Origin: a virus
Taxonomy: Duplodnaviria > Heunggongvirae > Uroviricota > Caudoviricetes
Length of the DNA stretch: 4,940 nt
Direction: 5' to 3' (one strand)
IMG/VR virus record: IMGVR_UViG_2654587792_000012
Coordinates: 1 to 4,940 of that record
Under the pieces are notes generated by a model that had not been told where the DNA came from, searched no databases, and saw only the letters and a program-made list of their open reading frames with translations. This document shows positions 1-4,940 of this stretch, in pieces (the first letter of the stretch is position 1; the number at the start of each line of letters is the position of its first letter). Made by a program: the position numbers and the translations under genes.

Positions 1-123
1 GTTCGTCCGGGCATGAAGATACCCCGCGCTCAGCGTGGACTGATGTTCAGACGCCCATGCAGGCGCACCGGATACGGCCAGACAAATGGCTGCGGACGAA
101 ATGGCGGCATAAAGTTTACGCAT
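1..123 (-). CDS. lom: Outer membrane protein Lom (Ail/Lom family), N-terminal fragment; CDS continues beyond the left edge of the window
   Basis: Minus-strand ATG at 121-123 preceded by GAGAGG (plus 129-134) with a 5-nt spacer. The frame is open to position 1 and translates to MRKLYAAISSAAICLAVSGAPAWASEHQSTLSAGYLHARTN: a signal peptide (hydrophobic core, AWA cleavage motif) followed by what I recognise from memory as the mature N-terminus of lambda Lom. Position immediately downstream of J matches lambda synteny. Not in the ORF track because no stop codon falls inside the window. Confidence 0.85.
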   Translation of the reverse strand, partial: MRKLYAAISSAAICLAVSGAPAWASEHQSTLSAGYLHARTN

Positions 124-128
124 AATTA

Positions 129-134
129 CCTCTC
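129..134 (-). promoter_or_regulatory. Shine-Dalgarno sequence of lom (GAGAGG, 5 nt upstream of the ATG)
   Basis: Minus-strand sequence AAAAGCGAGAGGTAATTATG read directly from the reverse complement of 121-140. Confidence 0.6.
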
Positions 135-144
135 GCTTTTCTGC

Positions 145-172
145 AATAAAAAAGGCGTCATTTCTGGCGCCC
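145..172 (-). terminator. Weak hairpin plus U-tract between J stop and lom start (possible intrinsic terminator or RNA stability element)
   Basis: Minus-strand RNA would read GGGCGCC-AGAAAU-GACGCC followed by UUUUUUAUU. The stem is only 4-5 bp (one mismatch, one G-U) and GC-rich; the U-tract is strong. Marginal as a terminator. Confidence 0.3.
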
Positions 173-190
173 GTATATGGGTTATAAAAT

Positions 191-3100
191 TCAGCTGATA
201 CTGATGCCTGCGGTGGCTTTCTTCATCACCACAACCAGCAAATCGCTGATACTTGCTGTGGGATACCAGTTATTCACTAGCCATGCTGATACCGAAAACT
301 CCAGCGTCATGTGACCGTGACCGGCAGGCATATCAATAACGCCACTGTAAATCAGCGTATTATCCAGCGCGGTACGGTTATAAATTTCAGCACCGTTTTT
401 CCGCACTATCAGACGGCATGAGGAGTAAATATCAGTATGCTCTCTCTCATGCTTAGCGCCACTGAATGCCACCGCCGGAATAACAATCTGCCGGTCAAAC
501 GGCTGATCGTCATAAACCCTGACGGTAATGGTCCCTGATGGCCACCGCTCCGGTGCCCGGGAGTCCCGCGGAAAAGCCTTACCCACTGTTTTGACTATAT
601 CGCCTTCAATCTGGTTGGCTGACAGTTTCCCCTTAATCTGACAGTTCTCATTAATTGTGACATTGTTGAGCGTCCCGGCGTTCGCATTCACACTGCCACT
701 GATATCTGCATTTTTAGCGGTCAGCTTTCCGTCCGGTGTCAGGGAAAATGCCGGAGGATTACCGCCGCTGGTAATGGTGGGAGCCGTCAGTCGCTTCAGG
801 AACACGTCGTTCATGAATATCTGGTTGCCCTGCGCCACAAACATCGGCGTTTCATTCCCGTTTGCCGGGTCAATAAACGCGATACGATTGGCGGCAACCA
901 GAAACTGGCTCAGTTTGCCTTCCTCCGCGTCCTCCATGCTGAGGCCAATACCCGCGACATAATGTTTGCCGTCTTTGGTCTGCTCAATTTTGACGCCCCA
1001 CATGGCATTCCACTTATCGTTGGCGTCCTTCCACTCTTTCGAAAACTCCTCCAGTCTGCTGGCGTTATCCTCCGTCAGGTCGACTTTTTCCAGCAGCTCT
1101 TTACCGAGATGGGATTCGGTTATCTTGCCTTTGAAAAAATCCAGGTAACCTTCCGCATCATCGCTCGCCCGACCGACGGCCTCCACGAATGCCGATTTGC
1201 CAACGGTGTTCACACTGCGGATATAAAAGTAATAATCATGGCCCGGTTTGATATTGATACTGGCGGCTATCCAGTACAGCCCCGAGCCAAGGTAGCGGGC
1301 TGTGGTTTCAACCTGCCTGATATCGGTAATCCGCTTTTCCGAGAACCAGAACTCAAACTGTACCGTCGGATCATAAACGGCAAGATGCGGCGTTGCGGTT
1401 ATCTGAAAATAGCCCGGCGTCAGCTCAATCGTGGCGGGTACCGCAGGTGCATTAATCCTGAACGTGGTGGTGGCCGGTTCCCCCTGCTGGCCATAACTGT
1501 TAATTGCCCTGACTGTCAGGGTGTATTCCCCGAGCGGCAGACCACTGAAACGATGCTCTGTATCCGCAGTGATGGCGGTGGTCACCAGACGGCTGTCCTG
1601 ACCGCTTCCACTGGTCAGGCGCAGACTGAAGCGCACACCCTTCACCACCCGCGGCGTGTCCCATTTCGCCTGCGCCAGATACTGGCTGTCAGCTGCACTC
1701 ACCTCCACCGTCAGGTGCTGCACTGCCGGTGGGATAACGCTGTTCAGGGTGCCTGACTGCGGCTCAAAGCTGGCCCCGTTATCCACGATGGCTTCTTTTT
1801 CCGGTACGTGCTGCACCGCCGTGATGGCAAAGGTGCCGTCCGTGTTTTCCCGGATGGAAACACAGCGGAACAGGCGACGACGCAGTGACGGCAGGGAGAG
1901 TCCCCATACACCGTATGTCTCCACACCATCAGGCAGGGTGCTGACCTGTATCCGGTCCGGCGCGGGGTGTGCAGTGATGGCCACGCTCACCGGCTTACCG
2001 CTGCCGTTAATCAGGTTCACCGTGGCGGCACCTGTCTCCGGCAGGGTCACCTCACGGTCCAGTGTCAGGGTGCGGCTGGCGGCATCGATGGACAGGACAC
2101 GTCCGCCGGTCATGGTACCGGCGTAGTCGTTATCACAGATTTCAATGATGTCACCGGGGGTGTGACGCAGCCCCTGTGACCCGAGCGTGAAATCCACCGT
2201 CTGCGTTTCCAGCAGTCCGGTCTTTATCACCCACAGCCCGGCACGGTGGGCCTGACCGCGACTGGTGCAACCGAACGCATCCATCTTCAGCAGGTTGCGC
2301 CCGTAGCGCAGTATGGCTTCCGGGTCTTCCACCAGTTCCGTGGAGGTCTGCCAGCCGTTCTGCGGGTCGGTGTAATTCACCTCCACCGCCGTGTGGCGGT
2401 CCTTCAGGGCGCTGAAGCTGTAGCGAAACCCCACGCCGTTATCATCCACCACTACATCGCAGTTGGTGTACGGCCACACCACATCCGACGGGCGGTCCTG
2501 AACGAACGTCAGCGTCTGGCCGTTCCATACCGGCATACAGCGCATCGCCGAGCAGAAATCACTGAGAACGTCCCACGCCTTACGCTGTTGTGACAGGTAC
2601 GCATTAAAGGTCATCCGCGGCTCTGTGCCCCCGAAACCATCCGGGACCGTCTGGTCGCAGTACTGCCCGATGGCATACAGCGCCCACTTGTCCACATCCG
2701 CCGCCCCCAGACGTTTTCCCATGCCGTAGCGCGGGTGAGTCAGCATGTCCCACAGGCACCAGGCCGGGTTGTTGCTGTATGCCGGTTTCAGGCTGCCGTC
2801 CCAGATGCCGCTGTAAGTGCGTTTTTCCGGGTCATAGTTTGACGGCACCAGGATGATGCGACCTCGGATATGGTAGTTCACCGTCATCTGCTGACCGCCA
2901 AACTGCTCCGCATCCACCTGCAGCCCCACAATCGCCGTGTTCGGGTAGCACTGTTTCACATCGATGATTTCGGTGTATGACGACCAGAGCGTCTTATTCT
3001 GCAGCTGGTCCGAGGTGCTGTCCGCTGTCTCCCGGACCATCCGGATGTTAAAAGGACGGGGAGGCAGATTATCCAGAATCACCGACGCCAGAAACTGCGA

Positions 3101-3580
3101 GGTGGTCTTGCCGTTAATGGTGACATCCTTTTCCGTCACCCAGTTACCGTTACGCTGTAACTGAATCAGCAGGCGGACGGATGTCGGGTTTCGGTCACCC
3201 TTTGACGTGGTCTGCACCAGTGACTGCACCCCGAAGGTGACCCGCAGGCGGTCAATGTTCGCGGATGTAATGGTGCGCGTCACCGGCTTTGCCTTCGTCA
3301 CTTCCACGCCCAGTGCGGTTTCCGCCCCGGAGGACTCAAAGCCTTCGGGTGGTGTCTGCTCCTGCTCCCCGGCGCGCCAGACCGCGGTCACACCGTGTAT
3401 CACAGGATTGCCGTCAGTGTCCGTCAGCGGGGTTTTGTTCACCAGAATACTCTGCAGTCCCTTCACCGGACCTTCAATCGGCCCTTCACCAATGGCATCA
3501 ATCACGCTCATCATCTGCGTGGACTTAAGATTGTCCTTTGCCTCAACCGGCGTGTGCGCCTTGCCGCCACCTTTGCCCAT
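191..3580 (-). CDS. J: Host specificity protein J / central tail fibre (tail tip), lambda gpJ family, 1129 aa
   Basis: Single uninterrupted minus-strand ORF (track 191..3622) ending at TGA 191-193. I place the start at the ATG at 3578-3580 (15th codon of the tracked ORF): from there the protein begins [37 protein letters not shown], which I recognise as the lambda gpJ N-terminus (from memory [22 protein letters not shown]...). A purine-rich AAGGGTGAG lies immediately upstream. The 14 extra codons in the track start at a TTG and run through a terminator-like hairpin. Length 1129 aa against about 1132 in lambda. Long conserved blocks (e.g. [42 protein letters not shown]) and two FN3-like repeats in the middle are consistent with gpJ. 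Confidence 0.95.
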
Positions 3581-3611
3581 TGTCTCACCCTTTACTGTGA
3601 TAACTGTTACG

Positions 3612-3644
3612 CACAAAAACAACAGGCATCCCGGAGGATGCCTG
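3612..3644 (-). terminator. Intrinsic-terminator-like hairpin plus U-tract on the sense (minus) strand, about 30 nt upstream of the J start codon
   Basis: Plus 3623-3631 CAGGCATCC and 3636-3644 GGATGCCTG form a perfect 9-bp stem (6 GC pairs) with a 4-nt loop (3632-3635). On the minus strand the stem is followed by TTGTTTTTGTG (plus 3612-3622). Confidence 0.45.
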
Positions 3645-3652
3645 TATCATCA

Positions 3653-3688
3653 CTGAATAAAAATTCTGAATATCTTCACATTTTCACA
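3653..3688. repeat. Short direct repeats in the spacer: CTGAATA twice (3653-3659, 3666-3672) and TTCACA twice (3675-3680, 3683-3688)
   Basis: Read directly from the sequence cactgaataaaaattctgaatatcttcacattttcacaaa. The repeats are too short to rule out chance in AT-rich DNA. Confidence 0.3.
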
Positions 3689-3776
3689 AACTGACTGTGG
3701 TACTAATAATTTCTCTGCGTTAATGTTTTTTGTCGTGACATAAGAATAATTCTCTATAGTTAATCTTCGTAACTCT

Positions 3777-3810
3777 CCCGCAGCTCCGCAACACTGCGGG
3801 ATTTTTTTAT
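3777..3810 (+). terminator. Terminator-like hairpin plus T-tract on the plus (antisense) strand, abutting the I stop codon
   Basis: Plus 3777-3783 CCCGCAG and 3794-3800 CTGCGGG form a 7-bp stem (extendable to 8-9 bp with a mismatch) around a 10-nt loop, followed on the plus strand by ATTTTTTTATTCTTTTT. On the minus strand the same hairpin is preceded, not followed, by the A/U run, so it is not a sense-strand terminator. Confidence 0.4.
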
Positions 3811-3815
3811 TCTTT

Positions 3816-4496
3816 TTACCTCTGCCGCCCGATAACCACGACCTTCCCGCCACCGCCTTCATCACGGGTACTGATGTCCTGAGAGATTCGCCGGGAGCCA
3901 ACCAGCATTTCCCCGTAAGGCACCGGCATCGGGTTACCCTGGGCAATCATATTGTCCAGTGACGAAAAGTACGTGTTCTGTTTACCGTTATCCGTGCTTT
4001 TGTACTCCGGTACTTTAGCCTTCGGGGCCAGCATCTGAGCCACACCACCCAGTATCATGCTGGCCCCCAGTGAAAACAGCATCGTGGTGGCAGAAAAACC
4101 ACCGGCTGCCAGGGCTGAACCCCATAACGCCATTGATGCCCCGGCAGTGAAGAAAGAGCCCACGATGGCTGCCGCCCCCAGCACAATCTGCAGTCCACCT
4201 TTTCCGGCCCCGGCCAGTCGCGGCACAATGTGGATGATCGTTCCCTCACCCAGCTGTTCGTGAAGACGGGCGTACACCGCCTCCGGTGCCGTGTCCTCAC
4301 CGCGAATACGTATCTGGTACCAGCCTTCGTTCATCTGACGGCGGAATCCCGGCACCTGTAACGACAGCGCCCGGATGGCTTCCGCTGCCGTGTTCACGTA
4401 CAGGCTGAGGCGGCGGCCAAATCGTTGCAAATCCCCGTGAAGGCAGATGCGTGCCAGTGGCGGTGACGCCAGACAGAATGCGTTCGTCGTTGCCAT
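3816..4496 (-). CDS. I: Tail tip assembly protein I (lambda gpI family), 226 aa
   Basis: ATG at 4494-4496 to TAA at 3816-3818. The protein begins MATTNAFCLASPPLARICLHGDLQRFGRR, has a Gly/Ala-rich hydrophobic central segment, and ends NGKQNTYFSSLDNMIAQGN...VVVIGRQR, which I recognise as lambda gpI (223 aa, from memory). Purine-rich GGGAGAGG lies upstream at a rather long spacing of about 11 nt. Start lies 103 nt inside the 3' end of K in another frame. Confidence 0.9.
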   Translation of the reverse strand: MATTNAFCLASPPLARICLHGDLQRFGRRLSLYVNTAAEAIRALSLQVPGFRRQMNEGWYQIRIRGEDTAPEAVYARLHEQLGEGTIIHIVPRLAGAGKGGLQIVLGAAAIVGSFFTAGASMALWGSALAAGGFSATTMLFSLGASMILGGVAQMLAPKAKVPEYKSTDNGKQNTYFSSLDNMIAQGNPMPVPYGEMLVGSRRISQDISTRDEGGGGKVVVIGRQR

Positions 4497-4940
4497 TTTT
4501 CGGAATACCTCTCCCGTTTACTCAGTTGTTCAGGCAGATGGTGAAGCAGTTCACCGTTGCCGCAGTAAATGGCGGCATGATTGGCCACCGATGCGCCAAA
4601 GCAGCACAGCAGGATATCGCCCGCCTGTGCAGAGGACAGGGGCACCCGGTAAAAGCCGGTGACCGCCATATTGTCCAGGTACAGGTTCTGACCATTGCGC
4701 CACCAGTCATCCTCACGCTCAAAATCCGGCATATCAATTCCCGCCAGATGGTATGCATCCCGGAACAGCGTGTAACAGTCCGTCACCCCGTGCTCAAAGA
4801 GCCGTCCTGTCAGATGTGGCACACAGCGGAATTTATGAATGTCCCCCCGGCAGACCAGCCACCAGGACAGTGCACTTTTTATCTGCAGCCGCCGGTCGGC
4901 CTCGCTCAGCCAGGGCAGACCACCGGGATGACTGTGGACC
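4394..4940 (-). CDS. K: Tail tip assembly protein K (lambda gpK family; JAMM/MPN+ plus NlpC/P60 domains); 5' end lies beyond the right edge of the window
   Basis: The minus-strand frame is open from the window edge (first full codon 4937-4939) to TGA at 4394-4396. The track reports it only from an internal GTG at 4822 because no start codon occurs between there and the edge. Translation from the edge gives VHSHPGGLPWLSEADRRLQIKSALSWWLVCRGDIHKFRCVPHLTGRLFEHGVTDCYTLFRDAYHLAG... HSHPGGLPWLSEAD fits the JAMM motif H-x-H-x7-S-x2-D (plus 4895-4936). The downstream Cys in DCYTLF (codon 4775-4777) and His in NHAAIY fit an NlpC/P60 Cys-His catalytic pair. This two-domain arrangement is that of lambda gpK. 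Confidence 0.9.
   Translation of the reverse strand, partial: VHSHPGGLPWLSEADRRLQIKSALSWWLVCRGDIHKFRCVPHLTGRLFEHGVTDCYTLFRDAYHLAGIDMPDFEREDDWWRNGQNLYLDNMAVTGFYRVPLSSAQAGDILLCCFGASVANHAAIYCGNGELLHHLPEQLSKRERYSEKWQRRTHSVWRHRHWHASAFTGICNDLAAASACT

Follow-up and report, generated by a model that had tools for sequence, protein, structure and literature searches.

Why should a tightly packed tail operon keep two of its genes four times further apart than they are in phage lambda, with no protein encoded between them? The question arises from a 4,940-nucleotide stretch of a Caudoviricetes record (IMGVR_UViG_2654587792_000012, positions 1 to 4,940; hereafter the window), which holds the distal tail genes of a lambdoid prophage, all on the minus strand: part of K, then I (3816-4496, stop codon 3816-3818), J (ATG 3580-3578, stop at 191) and the start of a further open reading frame (ORF). 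Between I and J lies a spacer of 235 bp (3581-3815). An original prediction, made from the nucleotide sequence alone, described this gap as free of credible ORFs and gave the corresponding lambda gap as about 60 bp. Both statements are borne out: the lambda gap measures exactly 60 bp (15445-15504), leaving ~170 bp extra in the window, and 3581-3815 is touched only by out-of-frame ORFs that overlap I or run antisense to the start of J, for which reason we rejected protein coding in the gap. A six-codon ATG mini-ORF at 3724-3744 was likewise set aside, having no counterpart in the allele of strain E2348/69 when the two gaps are aligned.

The spacer is shared with the O55:H7 strain RM12579, where it is 100% identical and where RefSeq places the gene boundaries, including the J start used here, at the same positions; the genes around it are annotated in RefSeq as a C40 peptidase (K), a tail assembly protein (I), gpJ and an Ail/Lom protein. 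Outside the spacer, the identity between RM12579 and the window is ~96% across 630-4940 and ~91% across 1-208. Finding the same spacer in lambda would have spoken against extra DNA; it is absent from lambda, while being common in other lambdoid prophages.

Our analysis indicates that the gap most likely consists of two parts, a lambda-type junction next to J (3581-~3650) and an inserted small RNA (sRNA) gene on the opposite strand (~3651-3815). The J-proximal part comprises the J leader (3581-3611, minus strand), in which GGGUGAG (3584-3590), resembling a Shine-Dalgarno sequence, precedes the J ATG, and a predicted sense-strand terminator (3612-3645, minus strand) in which a 10-bp stem (3645-3636 paired with 3631-3622) encloses a UCCG loop and is followed by the tail UGUUUUUGUG (3621-3612). 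This hairpin has a predicted free energy of -19.3 kcal/mol (z = -4.3), and none of 200 shuffled sequences was as stable. It shows the features of an intrinsic terminator, namely a GC-rich stem, a short loop, a U-tract and a structure kept in relatives. Among ten variants, 99% of the cells in the stem are paired, compared with 35-50% when the 3′ partners are slid out of register; the variants include one compensatory pair (U-A to C-G) and G-U pairs at three positions where the plus strand would have A-C mismatches. The covariation score, which rests on the single compensatory pair, was reached by 16 of 500 shuffles. Taken together, the compensatory pair and the G-U pairs specific to the minus strand hint at an RNA-level role on the sense strand.

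A comparable arrangement is seen in lambda, whose I-J gap has, directly ahead of the J ribosome-binding site, a hairpin on the sense strand (CCGCC-UGCG-GGCGG) with UUUUGUCAUUU after it. Like the window, lambda thus places a GC-rich hairpin and a U-tract ahead of J; unlike the window, it has only 60 bp, carries no sRNA module and uses an unrelated hairpin sequence, such that an alignment of the two gaps matches at the ends only. Judged by position and predicted fold, 3581-~3650 corresponds to the short gap of lambda and has an element of the same kind built from unrelated sequence. A third J-proximal module is present in the commonest relatives in IMG/VR, in which the gap is 343 bp long and contains a palindromic hairpin of about -33 kcal/mol. 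Each of the three modules, unrelated to one another, puts a sense-strand hairpin with a U-tract ahead of J. The sense-strand element of the window probably terminates or attenuates transcription that lacks Q antitermination, or else stabilises the 3′ end of the upstream mRNA; Q-modified late transcription would read through 3612-3645, and only polymerase without the Q modification would stop there.

In the I-proximal part, a promoter-like site is followed, about 70 nt downstream, by a terminator on the plus strand; as a pair, they define a short, complete unit of transcription that runs opposite to I and J. The predicted terminator (3776-3808, plus strand) has an 8-bp stem (UCCCGCAG / CUGCGGGA, 3776-3783 paired with 3794-3801) with a variable loop of 10 nt in the window, and ends in a run of seven U residues (3802-3808), 8 nt before the I stop. 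With a predicted free energy of -13.9 kcal/mol (z = -4.6), this hairpin was again more stable than all 200 shuffles, so that terminator-like hairpins are present on both strands, as had been proposed; the suggestion that a hairpin at 3777-3800 halts antisense transcription just before it enters I agrees well with this terminator. On the sense strand, the stem is followed by AGAGUUACG rather than by U residues; the sRNA terminator is therefore expected to be unidirectional and should not stop late transcription.

The sigma-70-like promoter (3683-3710, plus strand) combines a -35 element TTCACA (3683-3688), a 16-nt spacer and a -10 element AATAAT (3705-3710), matching the consensus at 10 of 12 positions. 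No convincing sigma-70 promoter had been recognised in the gap before, and we revise that view, although the consensus score itself is at chance level: a scan of the whole window returned three such matches where 2.9 were expected, an equal-scoring one lying inside J (1209-1236). We therefore discarded consensus scanning alone as a measure of significance, and the weight of the promoter comes from its position and its homology, since it aligns with the TTCACA-17-TATAAT promoter of pasB in E2348/69. Immediately upstream, at roughly -57 to -36 relative to the predicted start, lies a conserved box, AAATTCTGAATATCTTCACATT (3661-3682, plus strand), which may be an UP element or bind a regulator.

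Transcription from this promoter would begin near G3717, 7 nt after the -10 element, giving a predicted primary sRNA of 92 nt (3717-3808, plus strand). A mature form of 78 nt (3731-3808, plus strand), starting 14 nt further downstream, is suggested by homology to the annotated 5′ end of the sRNA PasB and to the edge of the Hfq-CRAC peak of EcOnc22, both discussed below. Within the body, an ARN repeat, AAGAAUAAU (3742-3750, plus strand), may serve as a motif for the distal face of Hfq, and other alleles have A-rich runs of the ARN type at the corresponding place. Between this repeat and the terminator, a single-stranded stretch (3758-3775, plus strand) contains UUAAUCUUC, the best conserved motif of the sRNA body, and is a candidate seed or U-rich Hfq-binding region; a seed for PasB has been proposed at the corresponding stretch (Zhu et al. 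2026, 10.64898/2026.05.13.724894). RNAalifold finds the terminator to be the only structure conserved across alleles, with no conserved 5′ structure and an open body according to the prediction. In 13 of 14 alleles the stem of the terminator does not change at all, while its loop varies; as a consequence, covariation offers no support for the sRNA terminator.

An expressed sRNA is known from the equivalent position in EPEC O127:H6 strain E2348/69. PasB, 83 nt long and encoded on the minus strand of prophage PP6 (NC_011601.1, 1466343->1466261; PMC8550237 Table S6), was validated by Northern blotting, is strongly reduced in an hfq mutant and is more abundant in the 'non-activating' condition; with 37 RIL-seq partners, it conforms to the classical type of Hfq-dependent sRNA (Pearl Mizrahi et al. 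2021, PMC8550237). In PP6, the end of I (1466255) and the start of J (1466496) enclose a gap of 240 bp; PasB lies within it, on the strand opposite to both genes, with its 3′ end 6 nt from the I stop. The E2348/69 gap aligns with that of the window over its full length at 89% mean column identity. The two sRNA genes share their location in a lambdoid prophage, antisense orientation, promoter position, upstream box, CCCGCAG/CTGCGGG terminator stem with U7 adjoining the I stop and similar length, along with the same J-proximal hairpin in the flank. The PasB Northern probe, AATCCCGCAGTGATCGCGGAGCT (PMC8550237 Table S6), has a reverse complement nearly equal to window 3782-3803.

The bodies of the two RNAs, by contrast, are largely different. 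Window 3731-3808 is 71% identical to PasB overall and ~57% outside the terminator, and the longest shared word is 17 nt. PasB carries CUCCUU, an anti-Shine-Dalgarno-like motif complementary to the Shine-Dalgarno sequence, where the allele of the window has UUCUCU; its -10 element is TATAAT rather than AATAAT, and the terminator loops differ as well. Since the promoter region and terminator stem are common to both whereas the body is mostly different, the allele of the window probably has a different set of targets. The C/A at PasB position 27, which a recent survey describes for PasB-2, confirms that the PasB coordinates we extracted are in register.

This divergence places the window allele outside the published catalogue of PasB. 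The survey searched with E2348/69 PasB using blastn at word size 28 and more than 75% query coverage, and its variants differ by a few nucleotides only (Zhu, Shabalina and Storz, 10.64898/2026.05.13.724894). Comparing PasB with the window, megablast at word size 28 gives no match, and blastn at word size 11 aligns only PasB 51-83 with 3777-3808, that is, 33 nt or 40% of PasB, corresponding to the terminator alone; by its operational definition, the survey set thus does not include the allele of the window.

Counterparts are also found in the EHEC O157:H7 strain Sakai, in which Hfq-CRAC yielded three homologous plus-strand peaks, EcOnc22 in Sp15, EcOnc23 in Sp14 and EcOnc24 in Sp11 (Tree et al. 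2014, PMC4104026 Table S2). EcOnc22 was seen at ~85 nt on a Northern blot and is destabilised in a Δhfq strain (PMC4104026 Table S2); the targets of all three were listed as unknown in a 2021 review (PMC7873438). The coordinates in Table S2 follow an older system, and we calibrated the offset with Rfam matches to AgvB and AsxR, which gave +135 to +146 bp. In the current Sakai record, EcOnc22-24 all fall within the 240-bp I-J gaps of Sp15, Sp14 and Sp11, where I and J are on the minus strand, and a shift of +137 bp brings the peaks onto the plus-strand sRNA body, with starts at most 2 nt from the PasB-type 5′ end. The Sakai loci agree with the window in their place between I and J, in the strand used with respect to these two genes, in the terminator stem and in the AATAAT -10 element; their body allele (GAUGCCUGAAAAAUAACUCCAUAACG...) is another one, and their -35 element is degenerate. 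The papers considered here treat the two sets apart: the homologue note is empty in the PasB row of Table S6 in PMC8550237, whereas PasA and PasD have EcOnc entries, and the term 'EcOnc' is absent from the 2026 PasB survey (10.64898/2026.05.13.724894). Judging by our comparison, PasB of EPEC and EcOnc22-24 of EHEC look like alleles of a single polymorphic locus in the I-J gap.

To place the window within this family at the level of a profile, we used a covariance model of 96 positions built from 11 alleles, none of them of the window type. It matches the window at 3717-3808 on the plus strand end to end (model positions 1-96 of 96; 72.8 bits, E roughly 2e-11), reaches only 13.8 bits (E about 0.5) on the opposite strand and finds nothing in the lambda I-J gap. 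Together with the location in the I-J gap of a lambdoid prophage, the orientation antisense to the tail operon and a CCCGCAG-loop-CTGCGGG terminator whose U-run ends a few nucleotides from the I stop, this full-length similarity in sequence and structure suggests that the element is most likely a divergent member of the PasB / EcOnc22-24 family. By analogy with these homologues (PMC8550237, PMC4104026), the allele of the window would give rise to a discrete, Hfq-bound transcript of ~80-85 nt. The idea of a small RNA gene had already been raised, with the gene placed on the minus strand and ending at 3612. The gene survives, its strand and end do not: PasB and EcOnc22-24 are antisense to I and J, which corresponds to the plus strand of the window, and they end at the I-proximal hairpin, while the gap has no promoter-like site on the minus strand, where the covariance model scores poorly.

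The Rfam search that had been recommended to identify a known sRNA found nothing in the window for any family, including AgvB, AsxR, STnc100 and IsrG, even at E<=1, and no match at the gathering score in the I-J gaps of E2348/69 and Sakai; the same models do detect AgvB and AsxR in Sakai. AgvB and AsxR (RF02702, RF02703) resemble the element in being prophage-encoded and Hfq-binding, in their ARN motifs, in their moron-like insertion site and in an architecture whose 3′ part is conserved and whose 5′ part varies; they differ in length (51-60 nt) and in locus, since they lie outside the tail operon, downstream of PR' and the Q gene. We rejected an anti-sRNA of the AgvB/AsxR type on the basis of this locus and of the missing Rfam match. 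Two further sRNAs, svsR (PMC12803456) and HnrS (PMC13502914), were dropped after text searches tied neither of them to the tail operon or to PasB.

How widespread is the locus? Among 5426 complete E. coli genomes, 1662 (~30%) have some match to the spacer, as do 149 phage records, most of them from Stx1- and Stx2-converting phages. Nearly all matches listed carry no annotation beneath the spacer, the few exceptions being over-extended tail-assembly coding sequences. The classical PasB region is found in 956 of the 5426 genomes and the sRNA region of the window type in 194, with an identity of at least 99% in eight.

We further examined the variety of alleles with two scans of IMG/VR, the first anchored on the promoter word and the second on the terminator. 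Loci in the first sample were retrieved by the promoter word, and conservation of that word is therefore given by construction; the terminator-anchored sample provides the fair test. The -10 element of the 123 promoter-anchored loci is TATAAT in 91, AATAAT in 30 and GATAAT in two. In the terminator-anchored sample, the -35 and -10 elements vary more than the promoter-word sample suggested; over both scans, the -10 element takes the forms TATAAT, AATAAT, GATAAT and TATCAT. The upstream box persists in alleles that only the terminator retrieved, in which the -35 and -10 elements differ. In both scans the locus is a mosaic, assembled in differing combinations from several 5′ body modules, middle modules and terminator loops. 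What persists across alleles is the upstream box (TTCTGAAnnTCTTCACATTT), a GCGTTA start region, the A-rich ARN-type run, UUAAUCUUC and the terminator stem. As far as these sequences reveal, the polymorphism of the locus goes well beyond what a survey based on BLAST can detect.

Taken together, these observations make it quite probable that the gap is a lambda-type I-J junction into which a self-contained sRNA gene of the PasB / EcOnc22-24 family has been inserted, antisense to I and J; by analogy with the homologues, its product would be made in the lysogen, bound by Hfq and active in trans. The RNA would be transcribed from its own sigma-70 promoter, TTCACA-16-AATAAT, below the upstream box, and may be processed to ~3731, a step we propose because the annotated 5′ end of PasB and the edges of the EcOnc CRAC peaks both fall at the end of the U-run. 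Transcription would stop at ~3808, at the Rho-independent terminator, releasing an RNA of ~78-92 nt whose 5′ two-thirds are predicted to be unstructured and A/U-rich. Hfq would bind through the U7 tail, possibly also through AAGAAUAAU, and, as in the homologues, would stabilise the RNA in the lysogen. Functioning in the manner of PasB, the sRNA may then pair through the open 3′ half of its body with mRNAs of the host and of the accessory genome. We rejected the translation-initiation regions nearby as trans targets, because the predicted duplexes are no better than those of shuffled sequences, of which 85 of 300 were at least as good for J, 222 of 300 for the lom-like gene and 15 of 300 for I.

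The arrangement of the gene also brings to mind an action mainly in cis, in which the plus-strand RNA would target the late tail mRNA by RNase III cleavage, by uncoupling of I and J, or by interference with stray or late transcription into J, lom and the tail-fibre genes, trans targets being secondary. The RNA is perfectly complementary to the I-J intercistronic mRNA and its transcription converges with that of the operon, to which the gene is fully antisense; its position is fixed in every relative examined, and it remains beside the I stop even in relatives with an exchanged J-proximal module. The RNA, on the other hand, overlaps neither the I coding sequence nor the J ribosome-binding site, and PasB, with its many RIL-seq partners and its Hfq-dependent behaviour (PMC8550237), acts as expected of a trans-acting sRNA. 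The free variation of the body alleles is not needed for a cis-antisense role, and does not forbid one either. We regard cis action as the main function as unlikely, bearing in mind that it may coexist with action in trans.

A spacer acting purely as a bidirectional transcriptional insulator, with no functional RNA produced from the allele of the window, was among the explanations offered in the original prediction. Two strong hairpins pointing in opposite directions, and the recurrence of a sense-strand hairpin with a U-tract in all three J-proximal modules, are what such a device would call for. It would have no need for the ~130 bp between the hairpins, for a promoter-like site and an upstream box shared with relatives, or for a full-length match to the profile, and the homologous loci yield abundant Hfq-bound RNAs; we consequently consider it very improbable. 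Least credible of all, to a degree that lets us put it aside, is a decaying remnant or recombination scar, that is, a pasB pseudogene no longer expressed or functional: its body is divergent, its -10 element AATAAT is a weaker one, the exact allele is as rare as the eight genomes above imply and some relatives have the promoter replaced or disrupted by an IS, but the expressed Sakai allele has the same -10 element with a worse -35, the terminator, U7 tail, ARN run and UUAAUCUUC are all intact, and bodies of the window type recur in several mosaic combinations within the wider group of 194 genomes. Scar and pure insulator alike leave unexplained why promoter and terminator are shared with relatives and why the homologues are expressed.

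The preferred reading, an inserted sRNA gene of the PasB / EcOnc22-24 family, fits the proposal of a moron-like noncoding insertion. A moron is extra DNA between two genes of an operon, absent from relatives and equipped with its own promoter and terminator (Juhala et al. 2000, cited in PMC4104026). The segment ~3651-3815 is self-contained and absent from lambda, with a predicted promoter and a terminator of its own; it differs from a classical moron, which is a protein-coding gene, in being noncoding. The oversized gap in the tail operon is thereby explained as a known kind of lysogenic-conversion element.

The finding is real and largely explained by an sRNA family that is already known and experimentally supported. 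What is new is modest: a divergent, unannotated allele that would escape the published BLAST survey, and the apparent status of PasB and EcOnc22-24 as alleles of one locus. We tentatively suggest, as a possibility that we hold to be somewhat doubtful, that the locus is a cassette for exchanging seeds, in which a fixed scaffold (upstream box, promoter, GCGUUA, ARN run, UUAAUCUUC and terminator stem) carries recombining body and loop modules; PasB and EcOnc22-24 would then be alleles of a single hypervariable locus, each with its own Hfq-dependent regulon and possibly with gating of I and J in cis. A covariance model of the PasB / EcOnc22-24 family in the style of Rfam would improve the annotation of such elements. 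Should the targets differ between alleles, the extent of strain-specific post-transcriptional regulation in EPEC and EHEC would exceed what is now catalogued.

The relatives found most often in IMG/VR have a 343-bp I-J gap (locus L018, 7758–8100 of IMG/VR 2541047726_000002, and the other loci of types v0, v1 and v3), in which the sRNA module is adjoined by a different J-proximal module. This module contains a palindromic hairpin, AAACCCCGGUAUC-UGCU-GAUACCGGGGUUU, with a folding energy of about -33 kcal/mol and terminator-like character on both strands. The gap of phage lambda is 60 bp (locus L003, 746–805, corresponding to lambda 15445–15504), and its sense strand carries the hairpin CCGCC-UGCG-GGCGG followed by UUUUGUCAUUU, immediately 5' of the J ribosome-binding site. 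Since lambda's own gap contains a sense-strand hairpin and UUUUGUCAUUU, a hairpin with a U-tract before J recurs in three unrelated sequence modules.

Three further loci provide evidence for modular recombination and decay at the sRNA locus. The window-type sRNA body lies downstream of a different promoter region in L156, the promoter region of the sRNA gene has been replaced in L163, and in L166 the gene is reduced to its 3' third, joined to unrelated sequence. A separate interruption is seen on the reverse strand of L034 (IMG/VR 2534681940_000025), where the sRNA promoter is split between its -35 and -10 elements, directly after ...TTTTCACAAACTGA, by an element beginning TGAACCGCCCCGGGAATCCTGGAG. 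This element looks like an insertion sequence, because its first open reading frame (MTKNTRFSPEVRQRAV...) matches the Pfam HTH_Tnp_1 transposase family (E = 1.3e-12); one junction is visible, the contig stopping short of the other.

In the Sakai genome, the loci lie in prophages Sp15 (L124), Sp14 (L125) and Sp11 (L126). Coordinates in Table S2 of Tree et al. 2014 are offset from the current NC_002695.2 by about +137 bp at 1.27 and 1.94 Mb, as calibrated with the prophage sRNAs AsxR and AgvB. The annotation of J in Sp15 is split into two coding sequences, ECs_2943 and ECs_2944.

Elsewhere in the window, a promoter-like match, TTCACA-16-AATAAT, lies antisense within J (1209–1236, plus strand); its score equals that of the sRNA promoter, its occurrence is consistent with chance expectation, and no terminator is found nearby. 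Beyond the J stop (191), a short intergenic stretch (124–190, minus strand) leads to the next minus-strand reading frame (ATG at 123–121); its sense strand contains GGCGCCAGAAAUGACGCC and then UUUUUUAUU, a weak hairpin and U-run that the consensus scan did not score as a terminator.

Just 5' of the sRNA -35 element, an upstream box, TTCTGAAnnTCTTCACATTT (3661–3682, plus strand), is also present in L124, L131, L142, L144 and other loci, and is retained even in alleles retrieved via the terminator alone, where -35 and -10 differ. This box may serve as an UP element or be bound by a regulator; expression of PasB, a member of the same sRNA family, is condition-regulated in EPEC (PMC8550237).
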